A stretch of DNA of 64,000 nt from contig OY782781.1 of the NCBI GenBank assembly GCA_963678315.1, positions 2,016,001 to 2,080,000 on the forward strand, given 5' to 3'. Positions 12,321 through 27,589 of the stretch are shown here, one piece after another; positions within the stretch are counted from its first letter, which is position 1, and each line of letters starts with the position of its first letter. The notes beneath the pieces are model-generated. The model made no database searches, was not told the DNA's origin, and saw only the letters and a program-made list of their open reading frames with translations. The position numbers and the translations under genes are program-made. This DNA is from Candidatus Cloacimonadales bacterium. Its GTDB lineage: Bacteria; Cloacimonadota; Cloacimonadia; Cloacimonadales; JAFGVF01.

Positions 12321-14519
12321 TTATTTACACCAAAATATTATTTCTTCAATTTCTTCTATTGATGTGTCAGGAGCTACACTTTGTTTATAAATTAAACCAC
12401 TTCCTTTAAACTGGAAACCTATACTCTTATGAGAACAATAATCTACAGCTTCTCTAATTGTTTTCCCTTTAAAGTTTGGTACATTATTGTTTGCTAAATC
12501 AATATTTTGTTTAGCCCCAATCATTACATCCCTTTGATTTTTTGGGAAAACAACACCTGCAGAAGGGAACTGTTTTTGTATAATTTGACTATCATCTATC
12601 AATTCAGTAGTATAACTTATGTCAAGATTTTTAAGTTTGATTTTAGCATCTTTAAGTGTCATTCCTATTAGAGATGGCATAGTTGTGAAATCTTTCTGTT
12701 TTGAAATAAATTCTTCTGTTGTATACGAACCTTTGGAATATAGAATTTTCTTCATTACAGAATCAAAAATTGGTAATGCAGACTGAGAACCATAACGAGA
12801 AGCAAATTTAGGCTTATCGAAGGTGACAACAATTACATATTCTGGATTATCAGCTGGGAAATAGCCTGCAAATGAGGCAGAGTAGTCCCATTTATTTGTA
12901 TGTTTAGTCTTAGAATTTTTGGATTGTGCAGTACCAGTTTTACCAGCAAGTTTAATAATATCGTTTTTGAAATATCTTGCTGTACCATATTCGAATACTT
13001 TTTCAAGATTAGATCTAACAATATTCAGAGGACCTTGTTGAGAGATCTTCCTCAAGGGTTCTCTTTTACTCTCGAATACAATATTATTGTTCTTATCAAG
13101 AATCTTCTTTACTATATGAGGTTTAAGAAGGTAGCCACCATTAGCTAGTGAGCAATAAGCATTAGCTAGTTGCAATTGTGTAACGCCTATTTCTTGACCA
13201 TAAGATATAGAGTGTAAAGAGAATTGAGTCCAATTAGGATAGGATGCAAGAATACCTCTAACTGACTGTGAAATTGGTGTTGGAACTTTTTGACCAAATC
13301 CCATAGTCCTTAACATTGTGTAAAGATTAAAAGGCCCGATTTTTTCAGCTATCTTTGCAATACCAACATTAGATGAATAGGCTATAATTTGTTCTCCATT
13401 CAAAGGGAAATCTTTGGGATGGTCATCACTAATTTCTCTATGAGCATCTCTACCTTTTCCTTCATAATCAGGAACATAAAGAGAACAATCTATTGTTGAT
13501 TCAGGGTCGTAAACATCTAGATTAAGAGCACTTAGCATTGTAAAAGGTTTGAAGGTAGAACCAGGTTCAAAAATATAATTAGCTGGAAGATTAGCATAAC
13601 CTCGGATAACATTTTCATTCTTATCTAATTCATCTCTATCAATGCCAGCCATAACTAATATCTCACCAGTATTAGGGTCCATAACAGTACACATTGCAGC
13701 TTTAGAATCATGCTCAACTATTGCTTCTCTAAGTAATTCTTCAACTTCTCTTTGTAAATTAAAGTCTATAGTAAGATAAATATCTTGTCCCTCTTTATAT
13801 GGCTTAGTTTGAAGTCCTTTCTTAGGTAAAGGCTGACCTTTTGCATCATTATAGACTTCTTTCCAACCAAACTCACCGTTCAACTCCTTATTATAAGCAT
13901 ATTCTATACCATTTAATCCTTCAAGAGTATGTTTAGAATATTTAGGCAAGGTGTTAAGAATTGTATCATTAGAGACTTTTGCCGTTCCAAGTAATCTTAA
14001 TCCCGTTTTATCGCTGGCATGATCTCTTCTATAGTCTGAAAGAGTTACAACTATATCATGTATATCGTTTTCTTCTGCCATCATAAGTAATTGGTCTTTC
14101 TTGGATTCTACAAGCTTTAAAAAGAGAATTGGATTTGTTCTTTCTAATTTTTTAAGGAAATGTTTTTTTGATTTAGATGATACCTGACTGCAAAGTTCTG
14201 CGACTTGATTGCAGTAGTCTTCCATTGCTTTGTCACTTCCAAGTCTTTTTCTAGCTGAAGGTTTGTGTAGTTCTACTTGGTAGTATTTTGTTGTTGTAAC
14301 TAAGAGCTCATCATTGCGATCTAGTATATTCCCTCTAGTGGGGATGATAAACTCTTTTTTAGGGGTTGCTCTTCGGTATCGGTCTTCTGAAAAATCGTAA
14401 ACATCAACTATCTGAATTAGATACAGTTGTGTTATCCAAATTATTCCGACAAGAATAAAAACTAATATTACAAATTTAAATCTAATAGCTTCATTGCTTT
14501 TAGTTTTACTTGAGCTCAT
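12321..14519 (-). CDS. ftsI: Class B penicillin-binding protein FtsI with C-terminal PASTA domains
   Basis: RGNILDRN, EPGSTFKP (SxxK), SSNVG (SxN), KTGTAQ; PASTA-like MPSLIGMTL and VPNFKGKTIREA. Confidence 0.93.
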   Translation of the reverse strand: MSSSKTKSNEAIRFKFVILVFILVGIIWITQLYLIQIVDVYDFSEDRYRRATPKKEFIIPTRGNILDRNDELLVTTTKYYQVELHKPSARKRLGSDKAMEDYCNQVAELCSQVSSKSKKHFLKKLERTNPILFLKLVESKKDQLLMMAEENDIHDIVVTLSDYRRDHASDKTGLRLLGTAKVSNDTILNTLPKYSKHTLEGLNGIEYAYNKELNGEFGWKEVYNDAKGQPLPKKGLQTKPYKEGQDIYLTIDFNLQREVEELLREAIVEHDSKAAMCTVMDPNTGEILVMAGIDRDELDKNENVIRGYANLPANYIFEPGSTFKPFTMLSALNLDVYDPESTIDCSLYVPDYEGKGRDAHREISDDHPKDFPLNGEQIIAYSSNVGIAKIAEKIGPFNLYTMLRTMGFGQKVPTPISQSVRGILASYPNWTQFSLHSISYGQEIGVTQLQLANAYCSLANGGYLLKPHIVKKILDKNNNIVFESKREPLRKISQQGPLNIVRSNLEKVFEYGTARYFKNDIIKLAGKTGTAQSKNSKTKHTNKWDYSASFAGYFPADNPEYVIVVTFDKPKFASRYGSQSALPIFDSVMKKILYSKGSYTTEEFISKQKDFTTMPSLIGMTLKDAKIKLKNLDISYTTELIDDSQIIQKQFPSAGVVFPKNQRDVMIGAKQNIDLANNNVPNFKGKTIREAVDYCSHKSIGFQFKGSGLIYKQSVAPDTSIEEIEEIIFWCK

Positions 14520-14865
14520 TTGCGTAAACAGTTGAGGTGAAGAAGTCTAAGAGCCTAATGTTATTGATTTTCTCAGTAGATTTATTAGTAGACAATTCAA
14601 CAAAACAAATCAGGTTTGGATCATTTTTTGGTTCAATCAAGCCAAGTTTATCCTTAGCTATCTTCACTATTCTTGTTTTGCTGTTTAATCTTGTGAATAA
14701 TTGTTCCTTTTGATTAATATCTTGATTTAGCTCTTGAATCTTGTTCTTATAGCAAGCAATTTCACGGGAAAGAGTAGTGATCTTTCCTTGAATATGCATA
14801 ACTGCCATACAACCAAGTAATATAATAATTAATGCAAAAATCAGTGTTTTTAATTCATAACTCAT
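14506..14865 (-). CDS. ftsL: FtsL-like cell division protein
   Basis: TM plus coiled coil, RIVKIAKDKLGL; between rsmH and ftsI. Start moved to ATG 14865 (MSYELK) because AGGAG lies just upstream. Confidence 0.8.
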   Translation of the reverse strand: MSYELKTLIFALIIILLGCMAVMHIQGKITTLSREIACYKNKIQELNQDINQKEQLFTRLNSKTRIVKIAKDKLGLIEPKNDPNLICFVELSTNKSTEKINNIRLLDFFTSTVYANELK

Positions 14866-14875
14866 TGTATTGCTC

Positions 14876-15805
14876 CTAGATCGCTTTTTTTTCGGCAATT
14901 CTCAATTTTGCACTTCTTGATCGAGGATTCTCAATAATTTCATCCTCGGAAGCTGTGATTGGTTTCTTGTTAATAATTTTTAATGTTGATATTTTTCCAC
15001 AATTGCATATTGGAGATGAGGGCAAACAGGTGCAATCAAGGGCTTCATATCTGAAGAAATCTTTAATAATTTTATCTTCAAGGCTATGATAAGATTCTAC
15101 TACTATTCTTCCACCTGGATTTAAAAGATAAAGAGCATCTTTTAAAACGGATTTAAGAACGTCCATTTCGCCATTTACTTCAATTCTTAATGCTTGATAA
15201 ATTCTTGATAGCATTTTTGTGAAAAACTTAGGATTCATTCTCATGTTCTTTTCTAACAGGGAATTTAAGTCGTTTGAATTTTGAAAATCTATGCTTTTTC
15301 TGTTGTTAACTACTAAATTAGCAATTTTCCGAGAAGCTTTTTCTTCTCCATATTCTCTGAAGATTCTTGTTAAGTGATTCAAATCATAATTGTTCAATAT
15401 ATATGCTGCTGTTAGATCACGTGATTGATCCATACGCATATCTAAAGGGGAAACTTGTGAAAATGAGAAGCCTCTAGCTGCATCATCAATTTGATGTGAA
15501 CTGATACCTAAGTCAAATAGAATACCATCAATCCTGTTTACTTTGTTATAGGCTAATTGGGTTCTTAATTCACTGAAATTACTTTGAATGAAAGTTACCC
15601 TGTCTGCAAACTCTTCAAGTCTCTTCTTTGCAAATGAAATAGCATCAGGATCTTGATCAAAGCAGTATAATCTGGCTGTAGGGTTCGCTTTTAATATACC
15701 TTCTGAATGCATGGCTCCACCAGTCGTAGCATCAACTATGATACCATTATCCCTGATGTTTAATCCATCTATACACTCTCTAAACATTACCGCTTTATGA
15801 TACAT
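14876..15805 (-). CDS. rsmH: 16S rRNA m4C1402 methyltransferase
   Basis: HKAV, DATTGGAMHS, DLGISSHQ, PLDMRM, NPRSRSAKLR. Confidence 0.97.
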   Translation of the reverse strand: MYHKAVMFRECIDGLNIRDNGIIVDATTGGAMHSEGILKANPTARLYCFDQDPDAISFAKKRLEEFADRVTFIQSNFSELRTQLAYNKVNRIDGILFDLGISSHQIDDAARGFSFSQVSPLDMRMDQSRDLTAAYILNNYDLNHLTRIFREYGEEKASRKIANLVVNNRKSIDFQNSNDLNSLLEKNMRMNPKFFTKMLSRIYQALRIEVNGEMDVLKSVLKDALYLLNPGGRIVVESYHSLEDKIIKDFFRYEALDCTCLPSSPICNCGKISTLKIINKKPITASEDEIIENPRSRSAKLRIAEKKAI

Positions 15806-16260
15806 TATATCCTCACTGATGATTTCATTGTGCTGTTAGCTAACGCTGCAAGAAGATCTTGCTCAATTTGATCTGATTTGTCTTTTGCCCATATTGTGAT
15901 GTGATCTTTTTGTCCGATAAATTTAATATCTTTATCCATTGATAAACTACTCAAGAGTTCTTGGGGAATTCTTACTCTACCGTTTGCTTCAAGTTTTTTT
16001 GAACCTGTTGAGAAGTGTTCCCATACTCTAAGCTTAGCTATATCTATGGAATTACCATTTTCCAAAATATCACAGTATTTGTAAAAAACACTTTCAGGAA
16101 ACAAGATTAAACACTCTTCGCCACCTCTGGTGATAATGATGTTTTTTGAGTCACCATAGAATTTCAACTCTTTAACGAATATCTTAGGTATAACAATTCT
16201 ACGGTCTGTTATTGTACCGTAAAATGTACCATAAAATCTTCCTTGGTTGTTTTGATTCAT
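15805..16260 (-). CDS. mraZ: Divergent MraZ transcriptional regulator (151 aa)
   Basis: First gene of dcw; two SpoVT/AbrB-like repeats (TDRRIVIPK, EANGRVRIP), ITIW. Start moved to ATG 16260, which has an AGGAG RBS. Confidence 0.8.
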   Translation of the reverse strand: MNQNNQGRFYGTFYGTITDRRIVIPKIFVKELKFYGDSKNIIITRGGEECLILFPESVFYKYCDILENGNSIDIAKLRVWEHFSTGSKKLEANGRVRIPQELLSSLSMDKDIKFIGQKDHITIWAKDKSDQIEQDLLAALANSTMKSSVRI

Positions 16261-16290
16261 TAGGGAACTCCTATTCATTATTATTATCTT

Positions 16291-16334
16291 GTGACTACTT
16301 GTGACAGAATATGACTTTTTACAACAAATGTCAA
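16291..16334 (-). promoter_or_regulatory. sigma70-type dcw promoter overlapped by three 10-bp-period GTCAYA repeats (candidate MraZ operator)
   Basis: Minus strand TTGACA (16329-16334), 17 nt, TATTCT (16306-16311); + strand TGAC at 16292, 16302 and 16312. Confidence 0.7.
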
Positions 16335-16585
16335 TTATTATTATATAATTTATTATTAATATAACTATATTTAACAAAGAATGCTTTTATAAAAGGCTTT
16401 TAGCAATAATCAAATATATATCATTATGATTAATTATTGCCAAATTATTGTGTAAAATTATACATATTATTAGCTTTAGGTCATCTTGAGACATATCTTA
16501 ATCTACTGAAAAACAATATAGTATGGTTGATATACATTATAAGAGGGATTAAATTGCATAAAAGTGTATAATTTTGTCATCATTT

Positions 16586-16640
16586 TGACTAAAAATGACT
16601 AGGATTTAAATGGTTTTACTAACCATGACCAATTATGACC
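16586..16640 (-). promoter_or_regulatory. Second cluster of 10-bp-phased RGTCA repeats
   Basis: + strand TGACT at 16586 and 16596, TTACT at 16616, TGACC at 16626 and 16636. Confidence 0.5.
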
Positions 16641-16648
16641 AAGTGCAC

Positions 16649-17200
16649 CCTTACTCCCCTCCTTGAAAAATCGGCTTTTTTTCAATGAGGCTAGTATGTT
16701 AGGAGTTGGGGGTGAATGTATTAGAGACTGGTAACTGGGATCGCCAGCCTCTGAGCTGGCTTCACTTAGAACGTAGTTATAAGTGAATTTGTAGATAGCT
16801 TTAGAAAGAAGTCTCAGAAAATGGAGTGTAAGCATCCACCGATAGGTTGAACACGGTTCATGCTTACGCAAATATGCTGCTTTGTCCTGAAGGGACATAT
16901 CTCTACAGAGCCCATGATTTCAATCGTGGGTGATAGAAGGATTTCAGACTTGAGAAGTAGTAAGAACCTGGCTAGGCAGATTTAAGAATGTTTAAGAGTT
17001 TAGAGGTTTAATTGTTTATTTGTTGATAGATTTATTGATTAATTGTTTAGGATTTGAATTCGTGAAGATTGGGGTTATTAGTAGCTGATTTACTAATTTG
17101 TATTTAGTCCCGAAGGGACGGTATATATTAGCATGGGGTCTTGTACCCCATGTTACATTATATAAACGAATTGAGTCCCGAAGGGACGACATAGATTTTA
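16649..17200. repeat. Mosaic palindromic intergenic element, copy A (REP/BIME-like modules)
   Basis: Hairpins at 16658-16690, 16743-16760, 16761-16787, 16823-16872, 16910-16931 and 17107-17200; modules shared, mostly inverted, with 27955-28323 and 59619-61566. Confidence 0.85.
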
Positions 17201-17336: not shown

Positions 17337-18521
17337 TTATTTCAAAATAACTTGTTTGCTAGTAACAAACTTAGATTTTGGTAATTCAACTCTAAGGAAA
17401 TATATACCTGAAGGCAATGACTCCTTCAGTAAACTTGATAGCTCTAAGCTAGCACTTTTAGATGGATTACTAAATTCTGAAATCTTTTGACCCTTTAAAT
17501 TATAAACTGAAACAGAAATAATACTTTCATTAGATTTCACAGTGAAAGAGTTTCTAGACGGATTAGGGTAGCTAGTAATGGAAGGAAGAGCATTCTCAAT
17601 GTTTTGCTCATGGTTGGAGACTACAGGAATATATTCATAGGAATACTTAGTAGAGTTTTCCCAATTGCTAGTATCATTTGACCATAGTTGAGTTATAAGA
17701 AGGTCAGCGTATATGTAATCAGAATACTGATAAGACGCTAGGCTGTAGTTAATCCATTCATTATTTTCTGCAGTCAGACCTGTAACATTATTTAAAATCA
17801 TTGCATCATTATAAGAGTAAACATACTTTGAATAATCTTGCCAGGACTCATTACTCCAAGTTTGCCATATTTCATTTATAAGATAACTATTAATGTCCCT
17901 CTCATAGTTACATTTTGAATAATTATCCCAATTTACACCATCGTTGGAAACTTCCCAAAGCTCATAAATCTTATATCCTAAGAGATTGTATTCATAACTG
18001 ACTCTGTACTGCTCATTATCTTTTCCAGAAGAAAAATAAACCCATTCTTCATCAACAAGAATTCCATCTTCGTAAGTATAATTAATTGTTAATGAATCTT
18101 GCCAAGCAGTATTAACCCATTTTTGTAGATTATAGCTTTCAACTAAATTATCATCATTATATGAGTAATTCTCTTGTCTATAATTATAGAGAGTAGGAAT
18201 GTAAATTTGATATAGCATATTTGTTAAATTATTATTAGTGTCGTATGTGTAAGTATAGTATTCAAAATCAGTCCATATCTCTTCAATATTCTTATCAACA
18301 TCTATTGATGTAACATTATTTACATTATATGTATAGATACTATTATAGATATCTTCCCATTGATTATCTAGGTATTCTGAATAAGTATACTCTGATATAA
18401 GTCCTTCAGTACTCCTAGTGTTGTAAATGTCATGAGTTGGCTTAAGAATCAATGTCTTATCAATTGCAGTGATTGAAAGAATACTAAGAACGATACATAA
18501 AATTAAGAATGTCTTTTTCAT
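17337..18521 (-). CDS. Secreted Tyr/Trp-rich repeat protein with Por/T9SS-type C-terminal domain
   Basis: Signal peptide; ~30-aa repeats (W-x-[DN]...YxY); CTD YPNPS...VYNLKGQKI...LPSGIYF...KQVILK. Confidence 0.8.
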   Translation of the reverse strand: MKKTFLILCIVLSILSITAIDKTLILKPTHDIYNTRSTEGLISEYTYSEYLDNQWEDIYNSIYTYNVNNVTSIDVDKNIEEIWTDFEYYTYTYDTNNNLTNMLYQIYIPTLYNYRQENYSYNDDNLVESYNLQKWVNTAWQDSLTINYTYEDGILVDEEWVYFSSGKDNEQYRVSYEYNLLGYKIYELWEVSNDGVNWDNYSKCNYERDINSYLINEIWQTWSNESWQDYSKYVYSYNDAMILNNVTGLTAENNEWINYSLASYQYSDYIYADLLITQLWSNDTSNWENSTKYSYEYIPVVSNHEQNIENALPSITSYPNPSRNSFTVKSNESIISVSVYNLKGQKISEFSNPSKSASLELSSLLKESLPSGIYFLRVELPKSKFVTSKQVILK

Positions 18522-19435
18522 TTATTATCTCCGATTATAAATTTGCCTGGATTATTTACCAAAACTAGAAAGCAATTTGCGATTATTCTAGTCTGAGTAT
18601 ATATATTAATCTCATCACTTAGTTCATATATCAACTCTGAACCATCAGAAAATATCTGTTTAAGCTGAAGTTCAGCTGGGTCAAGTTCTGGAGGGAAAGG
18701 AATGTATAGGATAGGATGAGAAGAGTTTGTAGGGTTATTAAGTATAAGATGGTGAAATTGGTCATAGGGATATGAATCAAACCATATTTCATATTCTGCA
18801 ATATATTCTGTATTATTATGCTTGATAAATGAAATGTCCTGTACGTTATAGGGTAAGATTCTATCCGGCATAATGAACTGAGCTTGATTGATAGATAGGT
18901 TTATAGATTCTGAAGTCCCCTTTCTATAGGAGATTGAATCAGAAACTGATTCACCAACTGTAGAATTATATACTCCAGATCCCCCAAAGTAGAAGTAGCA
19001 ATAACCATTATCATAATATGAATAATAGGCTTGTAGTTCATCACTGATGGGGGTATTATAAAACCTATGTATACCAGTTCCATAAAAATTAAGGTTGGTA
19101 AATGGATTTGATTTAATCGCCATAAGTGGAAATTCATCTATGAAAGGAATCCAAACACCATTGTTAGATAGGAATGATATATTGTAATATTCAGAAGCAT
19201 CAGTCAAATTATATTGTTGGTTTATATAGTCAAAACCTTCAAGGTAATCAACCTTTTCTACAAGTATCTGTAAGCTATCGTTACCAAAATCATACAAACC
19301 ATCCTGGTCAATATAAATTGCTTCATCTATGATCTTAAAAGGTGATACTGCTGATGGTAAAGACTCATCTTCTCTAATATTACAAGCAGCCAAGGTAACA
19401 AGTGATAATAATATAAATAAATATCTAGAAAGCAT
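18518..19435 (-). CDS. Hypothetical lipoprotein
   Basis: Lipobox LAAC at residue 18; overlaps both neighbours. Confidence 0.75.
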   Translation of the reverse strand: MLSRYLFILLSLVTLAACNIREDESLPSAVSPFKIIDEAIYIDQDGLYDFGNDSLQILVEKVDYLEGFDYINQQYNLTDASEYYNISFLSNNGVWIPFIDEFPLMAIKSNPFTNLNFYGTGIHRFYNTPISDELQAYYSYYDNGYCYFYFGGSGVYNSTVGESVSDSISYRKGTSESINLSINQAQFIMPDRILPYNVQDISFIKHNNTEYIAEYEIWFDSYPYDQFHHLILNNPTNSSHPILYIPFPPELDPAELQLKQIFSDGSELIYELSDEINIYTQTRIIANCFLVLVNNPGKFIIGDNK

Positions 19436-20627
19436 AACTTACCCCACTTCCATAACAAGTATCTTCTAAGTCTGTAATCTTGTATCTAAGATATATTTTG
19501 CTCTTGATATAACTGATATCTATTCCTACTGTGTGCTGATTGTTCTCAATATCAAAATCATCATAAACAAGCATATTCTCATCAACTAGGAAGTTTGATT
19601 TGCCATAAGAAAGACTATACATCAAATTTATATAATCTGTTACTTGATAGTTTACTTTAAACTTAGCTGAAAGTTCATGCTTATCAAAGTTAGGAGTAAT
19701 ATAATCAAGATACTGATAATTAATAGAAGATGAAAGTTGGAGTTTTGAGAAGACAGGAGAATATCCTAAAGTAACTTGACTAACAGATAATGATTCCCAG
19801 TAAGAATAACTAGCTAGGAGAGATAAGATTGAGGAAAATTCTCTATGCTGAAGAGTAGATGTTATCTTAGAGGATGCTAAATAACTATCGTATAGCTTAT
19901 CGTAATCACCATCTAAATAACCAATCGCTAATTCAAAGCTAGTGTCGGCTATGTAATATGCTAAATCAATATTATAATAGTCTCGACTTATCTCATCATC
20001 ATTATATCTATTATAGTTCAATGCAATGCTTGCGTTAACAAAGTCAATAAAGTAAGCTGAATTAACTGTTTGTGTCTTTGAAGAAGCTTGATAGAATAAT
20101 TCTATATAATTATAAAGATAGTTATTCTTAAAAAACAGTTCTTCATCTAAAGGAGTAGAATCAAGGTAGTCGCTACTGATTAAATCAGTGTAAAGCATAG
20201 CATTCCTAATATCTCCTTTATAGTATTTTGACCATGCAATACCTGAATACTCAATATCTTTACTATCTGAATCCTTCAAGGCTTTATGATAATAATACAA
20301 ACTTTGAGAATAGTCCTTCTGCATAAAGAGAGCATAAGCATGTATTCTATCTAAGAGATAATTATCAATAGAGCTTGGGATGCTTGAGAAATGATTAATA
20401 ATTTCACTAAACTTCTGTTGTGCAGATAAAGAACTTAATAGCCCTATCCAACAAGCTTCATTATATGAATCTTCATTTAACAATGTTTTAAACTGTGCCT
20501 GAGAAAGTTGATATAATCCCATATTATAGTTTCTTTGTGCTTCATCCAATGTTAATGAAAAGATAAGGCTATATGACAACAGAAATAGTAGTAATACAAT
20601 CCTCTGCTTACTTAAATTTACTTTCAT
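19425..20627 (-). CDS. TPR plus probable outer-membrane beta-barrel protein
   Basis: Signal peptide, N-terminal TPR-like helices, C-terminal alternating aromatic beta strands ending GVSYAF (C-terminal Phe). Confidence 0.7.
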   Translation of the reverse strand: MKVNLSKQRIVLLLFLLSYSLIFSLTLDEAQRNYNMGLYQLSQAQFKTLLNEDSYNEACWIGLLSSLSAQQKFSEIINHFSSIPSSIDNYLLDRIHAYALFMQKDYSQSLYYYHKALKDSDSKDIEYSGIAWSKYYKGDIRNAMLYTDLISSDYLDSTPLDEELFFKNNYLYNYIELFYQASSKTQTVNSAYFIDFVNASIALNYNRYNDDEISRDYYNIDLAYYIADTSFELAIGYLDGDYDKLYDSYLASSKITSTLQHREFSSILSLLASYSYWESLSVSQVTLGYSPVFSKLQLSSSINYQYLDYITPNFDKHELSAKFKVNYQVTDYINLMYSLSYGKSNFLVDENMLVYDDFDIENNQHTVGIDISYIKSKIYLRYKITDLEDTCYGSGVSYAF

Positions 20628-21213
20628 AGGTTTTTACAAATTGATTATCAGGACTTAACTTTCTTAGTTTAGTAAAAATCTTCTTAGCGTCACTTAACTG
20701 ATTAGACTCAACTAAAGCACTAAGATAATATCCCATAGCGTCTAAGTTATAAGTATAAATCTCGTAGCCAGTTCCATAGTATTTAGCAGATTCAGCATAA
20801 TTGCCTTTAGCATAGTAAGAATATGCAATCTTACTAATAGCAAGATAATCTTTAGGGATTACTAATAGAACCTTGTTAGCTGTTTTAATAGTGTTATCCC
20901 AATCACCTAGATAGTAATAACTTGTTAATAATCCTTGTAAAGCATCAAAATTACTGTCTATCTCATAGCTCTTAGCGTAATAAGTTGTTGCATCTTGATA
21001 ATTACCTAATGAAATGTATAACCAACCTATTCTAAGGTTGAAGAATGCATTGTTTGGCTCTAAATGGCTTGCTGCTAACATATTTGTAAGTGCAACTTGG
21101 TAATTACCATTATATTCGTTTGTATAAGATGACCTGACATAATCATCAGTTTTACTTGCAAATACTATTGTCGAAATCATTAGAACTATTATTAGTAAAG
21201 TAATCTTTTTCAT
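20608..21213 (-). CDS. Exported TPR protein
   Basis: Signal peptide; TPR units (NLRIGWLYISLGNYQDA, IAYSYYAKGNYAESA). Confidence 0.85.
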   Translation of the reverse strand: MKKITLLIIVLMISTIVFASKTDDYVRSSYTNEYNGNYQVALTNMLAASHLEPNNAFFNLRIGWLYISLGNYQDATTYYAKSYEIDSNFDALQGLLTSYYYLGDWDNTIKTANKVLLVIPKDYLAISKIAYSYYAKGNYAESAKYYGTGYEIYTYNLDAMGYYLSALVESNQLSDAKKIFTKLRKLSPDNQFVKTYESKFK

Positions 21214-21218
21214 ATATT

Positions 21219-23366
21219 TTAATCCATCCTTAAATTAGCTTTGATAACTGTTTTATTATCTTTGTTTAATATCTCAATATCTGTAAAACCTGTCAATTCT
21301 TTTAAAGTTATCTTGCCTGAGTAACTTGAGATTGACTTGTTTAGAACACTGAAATTATTCTTAAATGAAGTTGTTACATTGTCCTTTGTTGGGGTTGATT
21401 TAGCTTTGTATTCAAGCTTTGAAAACTTGAATATTGACTGTAGAAATAGTAGAGTGCTCTCAAGAGTCGGGTTAGCAAGAATTGAATAAGGGGGATAATC
21501 ATTCCAGTTCAACTCTTCATCCTTATATAGTGGTAATCTACAAAGAGATAAGGCTAATCCATGGAGAGCAGATTTCTTGTTACCTGTGAAGTTTAGTACA
21601 TTAAATATGCCATCATAAACAGAAAACTCTAAAGAAGCATTTCTATCAGACTTTATAAAGAATGAACCATAAAGATTAACATCAACCTTCCATTTCTCAG
21701 TAAACTTCTTTCCGTAAGCTTCTACTTCATAAACAGCTTCATCATCTACTTTAAGGTGCAGTACATCTTGTAAGTAGTTAACAGGGAAAAGGGGAGATAC
21801 TATATCATCCTTTTTAGGTATGTCATAAGCTTTAAACATATAGTCATCAGCCTTTTTCTTAAAGTTAATTAAGAAAGACTTCACGGTAACACTACCAGGC
21901 TCTGCTCCATACTGAATATTAAAATGCAAATGTGGAACTGCTGACCTACCAGAATTACCGACTACACCAAGTTTAGCACCTTTAGCAACCCATTCACCAT
22001 TCTTAAATTTAAGACTACCCTTTTTTAAGTGACAATACATTGAGTAAAGTCCATAGCCATGATTCAAGACAATGAAGTTACCCCAGCGTTCTCTTGTATT
22101 AATCTGTCCAACAGGGTTATCTGCAATCCCATCAGCAAGATTTACAACCCAACCACCAGCTGAACTGAGAACAGGTTTATTGTAGCAGAAGTAATCTGTA
22201 ACTACTTTACCATCGTTCTTAGCTTGATAGCCTTCTTTATCCTTGATCTCGAAATCCCATGCATAAGCCCATTGCTCTTTATGTGTTATTTCTCCATGGT
22301 TACCTTGAGTGATGGTCCATTCCCCAGTAAATGGTAAATAGAATTGTGGACCTCCTCCATCATAGAATCGTTTAATTCTAGAAAAATAGAATTTTAAATT
22401 CTCTTCTGGAAGCATAACACCAAAGTCAGCTATGTAAGGGTTTTTGTTTTGTAGTCTCATTCTTAATGCGATAATAATGAAGATAACTGTTAGATTCATT
22501 GGGAAAGCATAAGGTGCTACATAATAATTCTCGAACAAGAATTGCATAGCGTAAGAGGTAATAAAGCCTAAGAAACAAGCAAATATAGCTATTAAATACG
22601 ACCTCAAAGATGGGATTAAAAATACACCACCAATACTCATAGCAATAAGCATTAAGTTGAATGACGTGTATGATATTTGATATAATCCGATATCCTGAAA
22701 GTCTGTAAGGTTAAATCTATTTACAAGGAAGTAGCTCAAATAAAAGCCCATCATGGTTAGAATAAAACCTATTCTAGAGGTAAGAATAAGTGCAATAAGA
22801 ACCAGTATTCCAGCTAATATATAGGGCTGGAAGAATATACTACCTAAACTTTTCAGGTAGAAGTTTATCATATTGCTAGATGTAGGCATTATATTAATAA
22901 TCGCCTCACGTTCTTGACTAACCAAGAACTGTCCAACTCTCATCATAAAGAAGGAAAGGAGGATTGCAACAACCGAGAAGGATAAACTCATCGAGGGCAT
23001 TCTTAGATAAGTCGTTGTAAGATAGTTTAAAGCAATGAATAGTAAGAGTGCTATCAAGGAACCACTAACTAAAGCAAGCCAATATTCCAAGCTTCCTATT
23101 AGCTGATTAGGCATATAGAAACCTACCCCTAAACTTACCAGCATGCTATTAAATGCTAGTAATCCTGATTTAGAATTCCAGTCTTCAAAGTTTAACAATC
23201 TTGCAACAACTAATGCTATTATTGTTCCTAAAATACCAGTTATACCAGTTCTAGGTTCAACAAGAGTACTTAATAGAATCAATAACCCTACTATATATTT
23301 ATCGCTAAATAAAATAGTAGAGTATGTATTGATTATAGATTTACTTAGGTTAAGTATTATATTCAT
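21219..23366 (-). CDS. Urea-transporter-like membrane domain fused to an M23 metallopeptidase and a C-terminal unknown domain
   Basis: ~10 TM with UT-like pattern (STILF, GLLAFNSML, GSIFFQ, PYAFP); M23 motifs TH...AWD, GNFIVLNH, YCHL, GNSGRSAVPHLHF. Confidence 0.8.
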   Translation of the reverse strand: MNIILNLSKSIINTYSTILFSDKYIVGLLILLSTLVEPRTGITGILGTIIALVVARLLNFEDWNSKSGLLAFNSMLVSLGVGFYMPNQLIGSLEYWLALVSGSLIALLLFIALNYLTTTYLRMPSMSLSFSVVAILLSFFMMRVGQFLVSQEREAIINIMPTSSNMINFYLKSLGSIFFQPYILAGILVLIALILTSRIGFILTMMGFYLSYFLVNRFNLTDFQDIGLYQISYTSFNLMLIAMSIGGVFLIPSLRSYLIAIFACFLGFITSYAMQFLFENYYVAPYAFPMNLTVIFIIIALRMRLQNKNPYIADFGVMLPEENLKFYFSRIKRFYDGGGPQFYLPFTGEWTITQGNHGEITHKEQWAYAWDFEIKDKEGYQAKNDGKVVTDYFCYNKPVLSSAGGWVVNLADGIADNPVGQINTRERWGNFIVLNHGYGLYSMYCHLKKGSLKFKNGEWVAKGAKLGVVGNSGRSAVPHLHFNIQYGAEPGSVTVKSFLINFKKKADDYMFKAYDIPKKDDIVSPLFPVNYLQDVLHLKVDDEAVYEVEAYGKKFTEKWKVDVNLYGSFFIKSDRNASLEFSVYDGIFNVLNFTGNKKSALHGLALSLCRLPLYKDEELNWNDYPPYSILANPTLESTLLFLQSIFKFSKLEYKAKSTPTKDNVTTSFKNNFSVLNKSISSYSGKITLKELTGFTDIEILNKDNKTVIKANLRMD

Positions 23367-23375
23367 AATTATTAA

Positions 23376-24728
23376 TTATAATGATCTTAAATATTCAGGT
23401 ATTTTCTCTTGTCTGTTGATATCTTCTAAAACTTCTTTGCTTCTGATTTCATAAGTTTCACCTGTTTCTGAAACAAGAACTACAGCAGGTCTGTACTCAA
23501 TAAACTGCATCCATTGGGTCACATTGTAAGCACCTACTGGATGTACAATAAGTTTATCACCAACTTTTAAATCAGGATAAGGTGTAGCATGTTTAACTAT
23601 GTCGATATTCATACATAGAGGACCATAGAAGACAGTTGATAGAGAGGTTCCTGAAGTTGGTTGTGCAGGAAGAACTTTAAGATTATACCACCAAGTAGTA
23701 AATAAGATATTTACACCTGCGTCAATAATTACAGCTCTTTGACCAGAAGCTAAGTCTTTTTTAGCTAATACAGAGGTAATAAGAGTTCCTGATTCGTCAA
23801 CCAGTGTTCTACCTGTTTCTAGAATCAGTTTTGGTTTTTCATCGATAGCAAACTTTGATTCATTAAATGCTTTTCCTATTGCTGAAGCGTATTGGTCATA
23901 AGAAGGTGAAGCAAATTCCCCTGGTGTATACTGATTATGAAGAGTGTTCTTAGAAGCGAATCCACCACCTAAATCAATGTATTCAACTGTAATACCTAGA
24001 TTATCTTTGATATTTTGAGCTAATGTTAAGAGCTTTGAAGCTGAAATATAGTAAGGGTTTGCATCAAGCATAAATGTTCCGATATGAGCATGAAGACCTA
24101 TTAGTTCGAGTTTATCTGCAGTAATTAATCTTTGAACAGTTCTGTAAGCTTCGCCATTATCATAGTTGAATCCAAATCTTTGCCATTGAGGATATATTCC
24201 TGTGTCCATGTTGATTCTAATTGCAACTTTAGGTTTTATGCCTAGTTCTTCTGCAACTTCTTCAAGTAAAAGAAGCTCATTGAAATGGTCTATATGCACA
24301 GTTACATCATCTTCTAGAACTGTTATTAAATCTTCCTTTCTTTTTCCAGGACCATTAAATATAATATCTTTGCCTTCAACACCTAAATGTTTTGCCATAT
24401 CATATTCCATGATACTAACTATCTCTGCTTTTGCTCCCTCTTGATGGAATATTGAGCAGATTGCGCCCAAATAGTTAGTTTTGTATGACCACGATACTTC
24501 TGAATTAGGATAATATTCTCTTATAATGGACTGAAGCTCTCTGTAACTATCACGCATTTTATTCTCTGAAAAGACAAAGAGTGGAGAACCATATTTCTTA
24601 ACTAATTCAGTAACTTCTATACCGTTAACATGTGTCTGGTAGTTAATTCTATTTTTACTATATGCTATTTTATTGCTTATGCCTGCTTGATTTCTTTGTA
24701 TTCTAGGTGGATTATATTTCTTTTTCAT
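23376..24728 (-). CDS. Fold-type III PLP-dependent decarboxylase (LysA/ODC-like) with N-terminal extension
   Basis: SYKTNY (PLP Lys), FNGPGK, HAHIG, DLGGGF, LETGR, GPLCMNID, GAY. Confidence 0.88.
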   Translation of the reverse strand: MKKKYNPPRIQRNQAGISNKIAYSKNRINYQTHVNGIEVTELVKKYGSPLFVFSENKMRDSYRELQSIIREYYPNSEVSWSYKTNYLGAICSIFHQEGAKAEIVSIMEYDMAKHLGVEGKDIIFNGPGKRKEDLITVLEDDVTVHIDHFNELLLLEEVAEELGIKPKVAIRINMDTGIYPQWQRFGFNYDNGEAYRTVQRLITADKLELIGLHAHIGTFMLDANPYYISASKLLTLAQNIKDNLGITVEYIDLGGGFASKNTLHNQYTPGEFASPSYDQYASAIGKAFNESKFAIDEKPKLILETGRTLVDESGTLITSVLAKKDLASGQRAVIIDAGVNILFTTWWYNLKVLPAQPTSGTSLSTVFYGPLCMNIDIVKHATPYPDLKVGDKLIVHPVGAYNVTQWMQFIEYRPAVVLVSETGETYEIRSKEVLEDINRQEKIPEYLRSL

Positions 24729-25803
24729 TTTTTACTCCTTTAATTAATTCTCCCATTGATGATAATTGTCCCATTACATCGATGCTGGAAATAATATCTT
24801 CTGCGTGTCTAATGAATATAGTTCCTGTTTTGAACTCTTTCATTGGATCTACATGTTCATTTAAGGCTAATTTAAAGACCATGGCTGGTAGATTCTGTCC
24901 AGCACCTTCTGCTAGTTTTATCCATGCTGGGAATCTTGGATTTATCTCAATCAAATAGAAGTTATCTTGGTGGTCTTTAATTAATTCAAGTTCACATGGA
25001 CCTCTCCATGATATTGCCTTAATAACATCTTCTGCAAATTTGTTCAATAATGGATTGTTTACAACAACGCCACCAAATCCTTTACCTTTATCAGTGATGA
25101 TTAGTTTTCTTTGTGGAATCATTCCAAGAATGTTACCTTGACCATCACCAACTAATGATATATTGAATTCATCCCCAATTACAGCTTCTTGTGCTAGTAC
25201 TGGAAGCCCCCATTTGTTCTTTATAAGATTGAAGTAATATAGTACATCATTAATGTTGTTAGCCTTATAAGCTTCATAGAAGTTACCTTTTATATACATA
25301 GGAAAATTCATCTTATATTCAAGGCTGTATACTTGAGCTATATCAGTGACATATTCAGTGTGGGGAACATTAATTCCCTTGTCTGGTAGAATTCTAAATA
25401 TTTTAGACTTGTCACGCATTAAGAGTTGTTCTTCAGAAGGAAGGTAAACTTTAATTCCTCTCTTGTTCAATTCTTTCTCAAGTCTAATATAGCCAATGAT
25501 TTCAGAATCTAAAGTTGGAATAAGAACATCAATCTTAGTTTTAGTAAGTATGTAATCTAGCCTGGATAATATTGCGTCTTTACCGTCAGCTGGGTAAGGC
25601 ATCTGATAAATTTCTTGAGCTAAATCATCAACATAAACACCAGACTCAAGATTGTCATAGATTAAACCAACAATCTTCCCTTTAAAACCAGCATTTCTAA
25701 TAGATCTGATTATAGGAACACCTGGTTGAGGATTATCGCCAGTCTTAAGACCTGTCACTGCTAAAACTAAATCTTCATGAGATAATTTAATACACATTTC
25801 CAC
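24712..25803 (-). CDS. ATP-grasp ligase (start may be ATG 25797)
   Basis: LIPTLDSE, RDKSK, FPMYIKG, LAQEAVIGDEF, WRGPCELE, LIEINPRF. Confidence 0.88.
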   Translation of the reverse strand: MEMCIKLSHEDLVLAVTGLKTGDNPQPGVPIIRSIRNAGFKGKIVGLIYDNLESGVYVDDLAQEIYQMPYPADGKDAILSRLDYILTKTKIDVLIPTLDSEIIGYIRLEKELNKRGIKVYLPSEEQLLMRDKSKIFRILPDKGINVPHTEYVTDIAQVYSLEYKMNFPMYIKGNFYEAYKANNINDVLYYFNLIKNKWGLPVLAQEAVIGDEFNISLVGDGQGNILGMIPQRKLIITDKGKGFGGVVVNNPLLNKFAEDVIKAISWRGPCELELIKDHQDNFYLIEINPRFPAWIKLAEGAGQNLPAMVFKLALNEHVDPMKEFKTGTIFIRHAEDIISSIDVMGQLSSMGELIKGVKNEKEI

Positions 25804-26047
25804 TATCCACTAAATTATAGTTTTCTAATACTCTAAAAAAGTATTCAACATCACTAACCGCTTCATCGTAGTTAGTCTCATATTCTGAAACTAAATACTG
25901 AGCTATTTCTTCAATATCTTTGCCAGCAATCAAGTTTTCTAATATGCAAATTGCTGTGTCGTTAGCATTATAACTATAACCGGTAGCAGGATCAAAAATA
26001 AATCCGTTTTGGTTTATAGCCAAAGAGTCTAGTTTATTAGTTCTCAT
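25787..26047 (-). CDS. PqqD-family / RiPP recognition element-like small protein
   Basis: 86 aa; FIFDPATGYSYNANDTAICIL...EEIAQYLVSEYE...AVSDVEYFFRVLENYNLV fits the PqqD wHTH pattern; AGAGG RBS. Confidence 0.85.
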   Translation of the reverse strand: MRTNKLDSLAINQNGFIFDPATGYSYNANDTAICILENLIAGKDIEEIAQYLVSEYETNYDEAVSDVEYFFRVLENYNLVDSGNVY

Positions 26048-26146: not shown

Positions 26147-27589
26147 TTACAGTTTTAATTTTTGTCCCGGATAAATGAACACTACTCCATTGGATTTCTT
26201 TTTGAGCTTGTTTACCTGAATAAGTCTAGATACCTTTATATTAAGCTTTTTTGATATAGAACTTAAGGAATCTCCTTTTTTTACTACGTATTCTTTGTTA
26301 CTGGAATAAGTAACATTACCGTATAGCTTTAGTTTTTGACCAGGTTTTATCATATTGCTCTTGAGTCCATTTAACTCCATTACTTTGTTTACTGTAGTAT
26401 GATATTTTCTTGCAATATCATAAAGGTTGTCTCCTTTTTTTACAATATGATGAGTGAAGTATCCAGCATTCTTGTTAAGAAAAGACTTTTCTATCTTCGC
26501 TACTAGTAAACTGTCTGATATAGAATTATGAGGTATAAGGATGTTGAAGTGTCCTTCTGGTAAAACCACATCGTTAACAGCAGAATATTTCTGTCGTGCT
26601 CTTCTATAAATTTTAATCCATGGGTTAAGTTCATATACTTTCCCGATGGAAGTTCCTTGAGCTTTTGCCCAAGAATCTATTTTATAGTGACCATTAAGTT
26701 GTAAATTTATTACTTTTGTAGTTGATAGGAGTGACGGATCCTTCTCGAACTGTTTAGAGAAGATCTTTTCTTCATTATCAAAGATATATTTTATAGCAAT
26801 TGCTTTCCAAACATATTCATTTGTTTCTTCTGTCTTAAATATTAGATCTTCGAATCTTGTTCCACCTTGAGCAGTGAGAACTTTGTTTACAGAACCCATA
26901 CCTGCATTATAAGCACAAAAGGATAATAACCAATCTGTTGAACCTTTTCTTTTGAAGTATCTATACATATCATTAAGGAAATCACAAGCAGCTTGTGTTG
27001 ATTTGTAAATATCTCTTCGCTCGTCAATAAAGTCATTAACCTTAAGTTTATATTCACGTGCAGTAGCAGGCATTATCTGCCAAATACCATCAGCTCCGGC
27101 ATGAGAATGAGCACTATAGGTTAACTTGCTTTCTGCAACAGCTAAATATTTAGCATCCAATGGAATATTGTTCTTAGTAAATAGTGAATCCATAATTGAA
27201 AAATATAAACCAGACTTAGGAATAAATCTCGCTGCCGATCTAAGCTCATTCTTATAAGCTTTTTTGAATCTTACTAAGTTGCGTTCATTGGTTAAATCAA
27301 TTTCTTGGTCTGCAAAATATACCTTTGTTGGGAATCCGACATCACTCACTACAATATTATCTTTCAATTTGCTGATTTCGAATGCCAGTGAATCTATTAG
27401 GTCTTCTTTAACTTCTAATTCTGTGTAAAGGGAATCAATAGTATGCTTATAGCTTAATTCAATTTGTTCTAATGATTTTTCGTCTTTCTGGATCTGGCTT
27501 TCCTCAGAATGTTTTATCTGCTTGTTGATGTTAGAACAAGCGATTACGGACATAAATAATAATATAATAAACAATTTAATGATTTTCAC
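26147..27589 (-). CDS. MltD-like lytic transglycosylase lipoprotein with two LysM domains
   Basis: Lipobox VIAC; LAVAES, AGADGIWQIM, AYNAG, ET; LysM HIVKKGDNL and YVVKKGDSL. Confidence 0.9.
   Translation of the reverse strand: MKIIKLFIILLFMSVIACSNINKQIKHSEESQIQKDEKSLEQIELSYKHTIDSLYTELEVKEDLIDSLAFEISKLKDNIVVSDVGFPTKVYFADQEIDLTNERNLVRFKKAYKNELRSAARFIPKSGLYFSIMDSLFTKNNIPLDAKYLAVAESKLTYSAHSHAGADGIWQIMPATAREYKLKVNDFIDERRDIYKSTQAACDFLNDMYRYFKRKGSTDWLLSFCAYNAGMGSVNKVLTAQGGTRFEDLIFKTEETNEYVWKAIAIKYIFDNEEKIFSKQFEKDPSLLSTTKVINLQLNGHYKIDSWAKAQGTSIGKVYELNPWIKIYRRARQKYSAVNDVVLPEGHFNILIPHNSISDSLLVAKIEKSFLNKNAGYFTHHIVKKGDNLYDIARKYHTTVNKVMELNGLKSNMIKPGQKLKLYGNVTYSSNKEYVVKKGDSLSSISKKLNIKVSRLIQVNKLKKKSNGVVFIYPGQKLKL

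Follow-up and report, generated by a model that had tools for sequence, protein, structure and literature searches.

A conserved six-gene cassette around a urea transporter–M23 peptidase fusion that probably makes and exports an amine-bearing compound

The genome of a Candidatus Cloacimonadales bacterium (GCA_963678315.1) carries an operon of eight genes, within which we recognize a six-gene cassette that is widespread and undescribed, and new as an assembly. The operon occupies positions 17337–26047 on the minus strand of a 64,000-nucleotide stretch of contig OY782781.1 (positions 2,016,001 to 2,080,000 of the forward strand), which we refer to as the window. We number its genes g1 to g8. The conserved unit is g1 to g6, which encode a PqqD-fold protein, an ATP-grasp ligase, a pyridoxal phosphate (PLP)-dependent decarboxylase, a urea transporter (UT) fold fused to an M23 metallopeptidase (UT-M23), a secreted tetratricopeptide repeat (TPR) protein, and a protein that joins a TPR domain to an outer-membrane beta-barrel. 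The operon probably makes and exports an amine-bearing compound. As to how it does so, we tentatively favor, as a possible rather than a probable account, a ligase/decarboxylase complex in the cytoplasm whose product would be released at the UT-like channel and cross the envelope. A first-pass annotation of the same DNA, made from the letters alone, had read all eight genes as one machine for the synthesis and export of a peptide or amide.

The gene order of the cassette is maintained far beyond the genome in which we found it. We called and clustered open reading frames (ORFs) in 92 loci, comprising 12 genome loci (handles L023 to L034 among them) and 80 metagenome loci, the latter retrieved by a scan with the UT-M23 family alignment, many at about 30% identity; in many of the loci, the UT-M23 protein was 28%–35% identical to that of the window. 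Genes for the PqqD protein, the ATP-grasp ligase, the decarboxylase, and UT-M23 were contiguous and in the same order in all 12 genome loci, and of the 51 metagenome loci whose upstream sequence reaches 3.2 kb or more, 47 contained the three upstream genes (a script counted 46; the three genes of L065 were missed by its distance rule and seen on reading). Downstream, a TPR gene lay within 3 kb of UT-M23 in 41 of 44 metagenome loci and 10 of 11 genome loci. Where at least 3.5 kb of downstream sequence was available, the barrel family (g6 and the clusters c8 and c12) was present in 34 of 39 metagenome loci and 10 of 11 genome loci. Cluster c8, the form that the g6 family takes in distant loci, sits between UT-M23 and the TPR gene and aligns with g6 over 308 columns (hhalign 98.1%, E = 6.8e-14), and the 271-residue c12 family matches the barrel half (hhalign 93.6%). 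A word-based search for g6 homologs returned only two matches, so the family was gathered from the loci instead. An AraC-type regulator stands ahead of the PqqD gene in 13 loci. Since gene order is conserved across distant loci, the arrangement is more than chance, and the co-occurrence around UT-M23 homologs that the first-pass annotation had suggested looking for is found for six genes. The other two, g7 and g8, which it had counted as parts of the machine, are lineage-specific additions outside the conserved core.

UT-M23 itself is broadly but patchily distributed. Of the 40 genomes nearest to the window's own, 17 have a full-length fusion; across the phylum, 87 of 232 genomes and 66 of the 151 high-quality ones have it at E ≤ 1e-30, with presence varying by family. 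A word-based search gave 466 homologs at E ≤ 1e-10 among 8000 scored candidates, and both Pfam domains were found in 118 of the 120 homologs listed. Source names included Cloacimonetes, Latescibacteria, WOR-3, Aquificae, Bacteroidetes, and metagenome-assembled genomes of Desulfobacteraceae.

The eight genes form a real operon. All eight minus-strand ORFs occur, by ORF list and translation, where the first-pass annotation had placed them, and they are as tightly packed as it described, with overlaps of 17 nt (g1/g2), 17 nt (g2/g3), 20 nt (g5/g6), 11 nt (g6/g7), and 4 nt (g7/g8) and gaps of 9 nt (g3/g4) and 5 nt (g4/g5). The terminator was also recovered, in the form of a terminator-like hairpin with a T run behind it, 33 nt past the g8 stop (17304–17284 on the minus strand; 9-pair stem with four GC pairs), which is a consensus match only. 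The single promoter was not confirmed by a scan limited to the sigma-70 type, which gave 68 sites against 68.5 expected from shuffled sequences. Three raw-read runs of RNA yielded 0 matching reads, which says nothing about expression. Five short contigs, 95%–99% alike to the window, fall inside g8/g7, g4, g2, and g2/g1, and the flanks have none; these come from one run whose RNA status is a guess and are too thin for a claim about transcription.

The decarboxylase encoded by g3 (23376–24728; 450 residues) has the alanine-racemase fold and belongs to a distinct subfamily that is not LysA. Both domains of the fold were identified (Orn_Arg_deC_N, 118.9 bits; Orn_DAP_Arg_deC, 47.1 bits), and the protein fell below the cut-offs of the FslC model NF041039 (243.8 versus 500 bits) and the lysA model TIGR01048 (230.6 versus 297.9 bits). 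Its closest solved relative was FigC (7kh2, 211.4 bits), followed by the best diaminopimelate (DAP) decarboxylase (2p3e, 150.5 bits) and BtrK (7ru7, 111.5 bits). In DAP decarboxylases, according to PMC7857480, an arginine of the specificity helix (R343 in the M. jannaschii enzyme) binds the distal DAP carboxylate, and an acidic residue after the catalytic cysteine binds the side-chain amino group. Both residues are gone from g3. The position of the DAP-carboxylate arginine of 2p3e is held by T344, equivalent to FigC T327, and is threonine in 59 of 59 cassette enzymes; the Cys-Glu pair of 2p3e is C372-M373, as in FigC C354-M355, with methionine again in 59 of 59.

This altered pocket is fixed across the cassette enzymes. 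K83, T344, W347, C372, M373, Q405, and Q408 are invariant in all 59 cassette decarboxylases, Y348, I375, and W406 are kept in 57, and M407 is kept in 56. The PLP-binding lysine K83 and the glycine loop G254–G256 are likewise kept in all 59, which marks the fold and not LysA function. The enzyme shares equivalents of FigC T327, Y331, and M355, and the FigC citrate contacts H357, R387, and N389 are replaced by I375, Q405, and M407. The substrate of g3 is most likely an amino acid with a neutral distal group and with its side chain held in an amide before decarboxylation.

The distribution of g3 relatives also points away from lysine synthesis. The first-pass annotation had named, as a result that would refute it, that the decarboxylase is the genome's only LysA and simply makes lysine. 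It is indeed the sole match to the lysA model in the 2.99-Mb genome (230.2 bits in the genome search), where dapA (340.1 bits) and dapF (219.9 bits) are also present, but its score is below the cut-off, the DAP-binding residues are missing from it, and it goes with the cassette. Across the order, LysA exceeded the cut-off in one of 41 genomes, with no match at all in 10, and DapF exceeded its cut-off in 38; the lone LysA genome (G019, 91% complete) shows no DapF. This difference indicates that DAP synthesis without LysA is normal in the order, whose members seem in general to lack the step from DAP to lysine. All 18 of the 41 genomes with full-length UT-M23 had a lysA-model match, which adjoined UT-M23 in 16 of them (204.8–230.5 bits); in the fragmented genomes G006 and G011, the match was on another contig and cut short (195.1 and 190.4 bits). 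In the 23 genomes without UT-M23, matches reached no more than 189.2 bits, except for the true LysA of G019. These patterns suggest that g3 is not LysA and that it is present where the cassette is, independently of lysine synthesis.

A second, shorter fold-III decarboxylase paralog (about 390–430 residues; 142–190 bits to the lysA model) occurs away from the cassette in some genomes of the order (G001–G005, G007, G009–G011, G013–G015, G025–G027, G032, and G037). The window's own genome lacks it.

The ligase, g2 (24712–25803; 363 residues, with a GTG start within the 17-nt overlap with g1), was assigned to the ATP-grasp families PF15632 (40.5 bits) and PF02655 (27.6 bits). It matched PRK12767-type models of NCBIfam at 80 bits, far under their cut-offs. 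A single-sequence search of the PDB returned only 2pn1 (E = 2e-4), and the best profile match was the large chain of carbamoyl-phosphate synthetase (62.8 bits). The g2 family has 39 invariant columns among 53 sequences. The pairing of an ATP-grasp enzyme with a fold-III decarboxylase, which the first-pass annotation had pointed out, holds.

The ATP-grasp gene is interrupted in one genome locus. In L025 (genome G013), the gene (L025:5108–8071) is broken in two by some 1.8 kb of inserted DNA that carries a 480-residue ORF for a Mutator/MULE-family transposase (L025:5670–7112), and residues 52–58 match on both sides. The cassette is probably inactivated there.

The PqqD protein, g1 (25787–26047; 86 residues), stands alone as a single domain with the fold of a recognition element (RRE) for peptides that are made by ribosomes and modified after translation (RiPPs). 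It scored 37.5 bits to PF05402, above the cut-off of 23.4, and is a member of the PqqD/RRE domain family on this measure. Within the family, the N-terminal beta region is conserved and the C-terminus is variable, which argues against a carrier tail of the LysW kind. In lasso peptide pathways, B1 RRE proteins bind a YxxPxL motif in the leader. The excerpted text of PMC10368454 describes this motif as conserved in lasso leader peptides. All 59 of the cassette decarboxylases proved to have a similar motif, [YF]xxPx[ILVM], no further than 30 residues from the N-terminus; in the window, it reads Y5-N-P-P8-R-I10 (residues 5–10 of g3, codons at 24699–24716, minus strand). A further motif, GxxxK[FYIH][GA], lies within the first 40 residues of 51 of the 59. 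As judged from motif conservation, the PqqD protein therefore likely docks on the N-terminal tail of the decarboxylase. Complex prediction for the PqqD and ATP-grasp proteins, both given as alignments, reached a best score of 0.05 against a mark of 0.32, which is no evidence either way.

The fourth gene, g4 (21219–23366), encodes the 715-residue UT-M23 fusion. Its structure was modeled with AlphaFold2 (AF2) from a 75-sequence alignment at high confidence (pLDDT 92.5, pTM 0.88). Residues 1–302 (22461–23366) form the UT-fold membrane domain (PF03253, 153.7 bits), and comparison of residues 1–330 with urea transporters by VIA gave full-length matches (Z 35.4–36.4, rmsd 2.3–2.5), the best to human UT-A3 (Z 36.4, rmsd 2.3, 308 aligned) and with dvUT (3k3f) at Z 35.4; a profile of the domain scored 177 bits to dvUT. 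In these respects, g4 resembles dvUT, UT-A, and UT-B. It differs from them in scoring well below the cut-off of urea_trans_yut (TIGR03441; 81.2 versus 274.6 bits), in its changed recognition positions, and in carrying a fused segment of 415 residues. Urea transporters recognize urea with a Q-T-T-Q motif, as given in the excerpted text of PMC11589576. The four positions, mapped from an alignment to the hidden Markov model, are T17, S127, S176, and A287 in the window. Among 75 family members, the first is Q in 43, the second is S in 71, and the fourth is T in six, while the third varies among A, S, and L, with Q and E in no sequence.

The fused segment consists of an M23 domain (residues ~350–500; 21867–22319) and a beta-rich C-terminal domain (residues ~501–715; 21222–21866). 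The M23 domain was recognized by PF01551 (60.3 bits), and its H362, D371, H446, H479, and H481 are invariant in 75 of 75 sequences. The usual M23 spacing is HxxxD, and in g4 the first histidine and the aspartate are 8 residues apart. In VIA comparisons, residues ~340–500 matched LytM/M23 structures at Z 13–14, including DipM LytM (Z 14.1, rmsd 5.3, 138 aligned) and EnpA (Z 13.9, rmsd 2.7, 123 aligned). The C-terminal domain is modeled as strands with few helices. A phmmer search with it against 1.84 billion representatives gave 70 matches at E ≤ 1e-3; in those of about 700 residues it is likewise located at the C-terminus, and the shorter matches resemble fragments, so by this search the domain is specific to the UT-M23 family. 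The best structural match of residues 530–715 was 4fvs_A (Z 9.9, rmsd 4.3, 163 aligned), which is weak, and we leave the fold unassigned.

According to the excerpted text of PMC11589576, a urea transporter subunit has its N-terminus and its C-terminus on the cytoplasmic side. No hydrophobic segment follows residue 302 of g4 in the hydropathy profile or the AF2 model, and the linker at residues 300–345 has a mean of 7.4 K+R versus 3.9 D+E; a plain hydropathy script did not resolve the topology. Taken together, the cytoplasmic termini of urea transporters, the missing hydrophobic segment, and the charge of the linker predict that the M23 and C-terminal domains are cytoplasmic, and a cell-wall hydrolase is an unlikely role for the M23 domain. 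The membrane peptidase fusion of the first-pass annotation is borne out in its UT and M23 folds, the catalytic residues are intact, and the peptidase is predicted to face the cytoplasm.

The remaining two conserved genes encode proteins of the outer envelope. The product of g5 (20608–21213; 201 residues) is a secreted TPR protein (TPR_2, 51.5 bits; TPR_19, 40.4 bits) with a hydrophobic, signal-like N-terminal segment seen by eye. The g6 protein (19425–20627; 400 residues) had no Pfam or NCBIfam match, as was also the case for g7. Its AF2 model (pLDDT 88.4) shows TPR-like helices at residues 27–169 followed by 14 strands at residues 173–399, and the chain ends in YAF, with an aromatic last residue. 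Foldseek matched it to BcsC (9b8a, E = 2.9e-11) and PelBC (9h80, E = 1.9e-9) at low TM-scores (0.35–0.36). In VIA comparisons, the barrel matched Omp33 (Z 20.5, rmsd 2.0, 188 aligned), a FadL homolog (19.8), OmpG (19.0), and PorV (18.5), and the helical part matched TPR repeats at Z of about 17. The TPR-plus-barrel architecture that had been read from the sequence is confirmed. Like BcsC, PelB/PelC, and PgaA, g6 has a periplasmic TPR domain followed by a beta-barrel, with a separate TPR protein alongside. It differs from them in a much shorter TPR domain and in a barrel of 14 strands that is nearest to the Omp33, OmpG, and FadL types, and no glycosyltransferase synthase was found in the operon in Pfam and NCBIfam scans.

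Together, these predictions can be arranged into a possible sequence of events, each step of which is conditional. The ATP-grasp ligase would first join the side chain of an amino acid to a partner by an amide bond, as suggested by the chemistry of its family and by the step that follows. The decarboxylase would then remove the alpha-carboxyl of the conjugated amino acid and leave a terminal amine. We infer this second step because the two DAP-holding residues are lost and because FigC, the closest solved relative, acts on N-citrylornithine, a side-chain-conjugated amino acid (PMC7857480). The PqqD-fold protein may dock on the [YF]xxPx[ILVM] tail of the decarboxylase and hold the enzymes together, with no separate precursor. 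On the cytoplasmic face of a trimeric UT-like channel, the M23 domain would trim or release the product; its location here is taken from UT topology, and the chemistry is a conjecture. Finally, the altered UT pore, or a path next to it, would take the product over the inner membrane, and the product would pass the periplasm and outer membrane by way of the TPR and TPR/14-strand-barrel proteins, as their architecture suggests.

Two known systems resemble the enzymatic part of this scheme. In butirosin side-chain synthesis, BtrJ and BtrK ligate, decarboxylate, and ligate again. The likeness lies in an ATP-grasp ligase paired with a fold-III decarboxylase that works on a tethered amino acid, and g3 and BtrK align at 110–111.5 bits. 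The operon differs from BtrI/BtrJ/BtrK in that no acyl carrier protein family was found among its proteins by Pfam; a PqqD-fold protein takes the position of the small protein, and its C-terminus is not conserved. FigA/FigC (FslA/FslC) of Francisella rhizoferrin synthesis and SbnH of staphyloferrin B synthesis offer the second parallel, in which an amide ligase precedes an alanine-racemase-fold decarboxylase acting on a side-chain-conjugated amino acid. Here, the ligase is an ATP-grasp enzyme and not an NRPS-independent siderophore (NIS) synthetase, the citrate-binding residues are neutral, and the decarboxylase is below the FslC cut-off; a PqqD protein, UT-M23, and TPR/barrel proteins are present, and there is no exporter of the major facilitator superfamily. 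Each known system that we compared fails at least one defining feature.

Several points weigh against this scheme of a ligase/decarboxylase complex at a UT-like channel. The product, the substrate, and any interaction are predictions from sequence and models, and the pairing of the RRE protein with the tail is predicted from motif conservation. The placement of the M23 domain draws on UT homology and a charge bias. PDB searches gave no close characterized relative of g2 that would point to its substrates. Four of the 51 metagenome loci are without the upstream genes, with none of the three in L067, L074, and L102 and only the decarboxylase in L094, and unrelated genes lie upstream of UT-M23 in L094 and L067. 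The pore of solved urea channels is narrow, and the passage of anything beyond a small planar amide is uncertain. In addition, TPR-plus-barrel proteins, going by the entry titles of the Foldseek matches, are best known from polymer export, which is a poor fit to a small molecule.

Other explanations account for parts of the cassette. One is a RiPP-type pathway with its precursor encoded elsewhere, in which the PqqD protein would present the peptide to the ATP-grasp ligase and the M23 domain would remove the leader during export. The PqqD/RRE fold is consistent with this, and the joining of a peptidase to a membrane exporter is reminiscent of the peptidase-containing ABC exporters. We consider it unlikely. 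No conserved small ORF was found in intra-cassette gaps of at least 110 nt in the 92 loci (systematic searching did not extend to flanks or distant sites), and no more than 99 nt separate g1 from its upstream neighbor in the window. The likeness to lasso systems consists of the PqqD fold and a leader-like motif conserved in a partner, but that motif is carried here in 59 of 59 cases by the N-terminus of a large enzyme (450 residues in the window) and not by a short precursor. Although lasso_PqqD was the best NCBIfam match of g1, the lasso B1 models were below cut-off (36.7 versus 70 for NF033530; 18.4 versus 80 for NF033536), and Pfam and NCBIfam scans of the operon proteins found no transglutaminase-like partner (the B2 protease) or Asn-synthetase-like partner (the C cyclase). 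For the delivery of a peptide substrate, which the first-pass annotation had cited as the role of PqqD/RRE domains in RiPP pathways, no precursor gene was found, and docking of the PqqD protein on the conserved decarboxylase tail is more likely.

A bolder explanation is iterative polyamide synthesis. Glutamate or aspartate would be ligated through its side chain to a terminal amine, decarboxylation would expose a new amine, and the cycle would repeat; the side-chain-free chain would thread its way along the UT-like pore, and the TPR and barrel proteins would export it in the manner of an exopolysaccharide. Several features fit, including a neutral, amide-friendly, and invariant decarboxylase pocket, UT pore positions changed to smaller residues, best Foldseek matches of g6 to the polymer exporters BcsC and PelBC, and the precedent of BtrJ/BtrK, of which BtrK is a 111.5-bit relative of g3. 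M23 enzymes also include glycyl-glycine endopeptidases, which cut side-chain-free peptide. Even so, we find it improbable, since to our knowledge no such natural polymer is known (a literature search on this point was not made), no primer or carrier was identified, nothing indicates iteration, and the 14-strand barrel is like Omp33, OmpG, and FadL and not the larger exopolysaccharide porins. Its fullest form, a template-free machine for a nylon-like chain (poly-4-aminobutyrate or poly-beta-alanine) with the PqqD protein gripping the decarboxylase tail, the M23 domain sizing or releasing the chain, the altered UT pore, with its build for holding planar amides, threading it, and the TPR and barrel proteins exporting it, is a long shot.

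Remodeling of peptidoglycan or the envelope is likewise improbable in our view. The cell wall's peptides or their precursors would be the substrate of the M23 domain, and the decarboxylase would act on peptide-bound DAP, a substrate whose L-center lies in peptide bonds and that could fit the loss of the residues that hold this center. The best NCBIfam matches of the M23 domain are peptidoglycan peptidases, and the operon sits between a gene for an MltD-like lytic transglycosylase with two LysM domains (26147–27589, minus strand) and an mraZ-rsmH-ftsL-ftsI cluster (12321–16377, minus strand). However, the M23 domain is predicted to be cytoplasmic, and no genes of the Mur or Fem type are conserved in the cassette. 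The MltD neighbor, moreover, was present only in the closest family (L023 and L032–L034) and absent from L024–L031 among the 12 genome loci. We considered a cell-wall link through the MltD and division and cell wall cluster neighbors as a conserved feature and dropped it, as the neighborhood is confined to that family.

A small siderophore-like chelator, made by a ligase and a decarboxylase as rhizoferrin or staphyloferrin B is, seems very improbable. FigC is the closest solved relative of g3, and SbnH is of the same type, but the three citrate contacts of FigC are replaced, and scans of the eight operon proteins with Pfam and NCBIfam, which did not extend to the rest of the genome, found neither an NIS synthetase family nor a TonB-dependent receptor. 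That g3 is the organism's plain LysA with an incidental gene order is scarcely credible, for although it is the genome's only lysA-model match and dapA and dapF are present, it is below the cut-off, has lost both DAP-binding residues, belongs to an order in which LysA is nearly absent and DapF nearly universal (1 versus 38 of 41), and is strictly tied to the cassette in distant phyla.

The last two genes of the operon are accessory. The product of g7 (18518–19435; 305 residues) is a putative lipoprotein with a lipobox-like LAAC at residues 15–18, seen by eye (Pfam LPAM_1, E = 0.027). It is lineage-specific, with homologs in five of the 92 loci, all of them Cloacimonadota. The g8 protein (17337–18521; 394 residues) is a lineage-specific repeat protein that bears the C-terminal sorting domain of the type IX secretion system (T9SS; Por_Secre_tail PF18962, 42.1 bits; TIGR04183, 42.8 bits) and is classed as T9SS cargo on these scores. 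Its family comprises seven ORFs in six loci, downstream of the cassette in L023 and L032–L034 and upstream of the PqqD gene in L027 and L030. Different small T9SS-sorted proteins (clusters c19 and c27) adjoin the cassette in other lineages. With the sorting domain trimmed, c24 (which includes g8), c19, and c27 matched at an hhalign probability of 31.5% or less, and the idea of a conserved T9SS cargo was dropped.

The 960-nt gap between g8 and mraZ contains further features. Just downstream of the operon terminator is an Rfam Acido-Lenti-1 RNA motif (17106–17152, minus strand; 44.7 bits against a gathering score of 37, E = 1.4e-7). Its short GC hairpin repeats near 17175–17187 and 16884–16896, the third copy being imperfect. 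An ORF of 99 residues in the same gap (16599–16898, minus strand) had no Pfam or NCBIfam match and may not be a gene; small RNAs may occupy the gap instead.

In one lineage (L084, L099, L100, L108, and L110), a conserved block on the opposite strand lies upstream of the cassette. It encodes an SLBB-domain protein, an NAD-dependent sugar epimerase/dehydratase, a 255-residue protein without assignment, and a transglutaminase-like protein.

A search of the full-text literature, with subscription-only papers not covered, found no described pathway with this gene combination, in agreement with the first-pass annotation, which had known of none. We likewise found no precedent for an RRE protein that seemingly uses an enzyme's own tail as its leader, for a UT fold fused to a catalytically intact M23 domain on what is predicted to be the inner membrane face, or for a ligase/decarboxylase pair coupled to a TPR/barrel exit through the outer membrane. 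Once the product is identified, a distinct subfamily of decarboxylases, which annotation pipelines label LysA or neighbors of a "urea transporter," would gain a function, and predictions of lysine prototrophy for these genomes would be corrected. Anaerobic digesters, sediments, and gut Bacteroidota could turn out to harbor a secreted amine, amide, or polymer that is new. Polyamide synthesis, if true, would mean a bacterial extracellular polymer of a new class and a UT fold put to new use. Intact across several phyla, the six-gene module is almost certainly important for cell envelope or extracellular chemistry.

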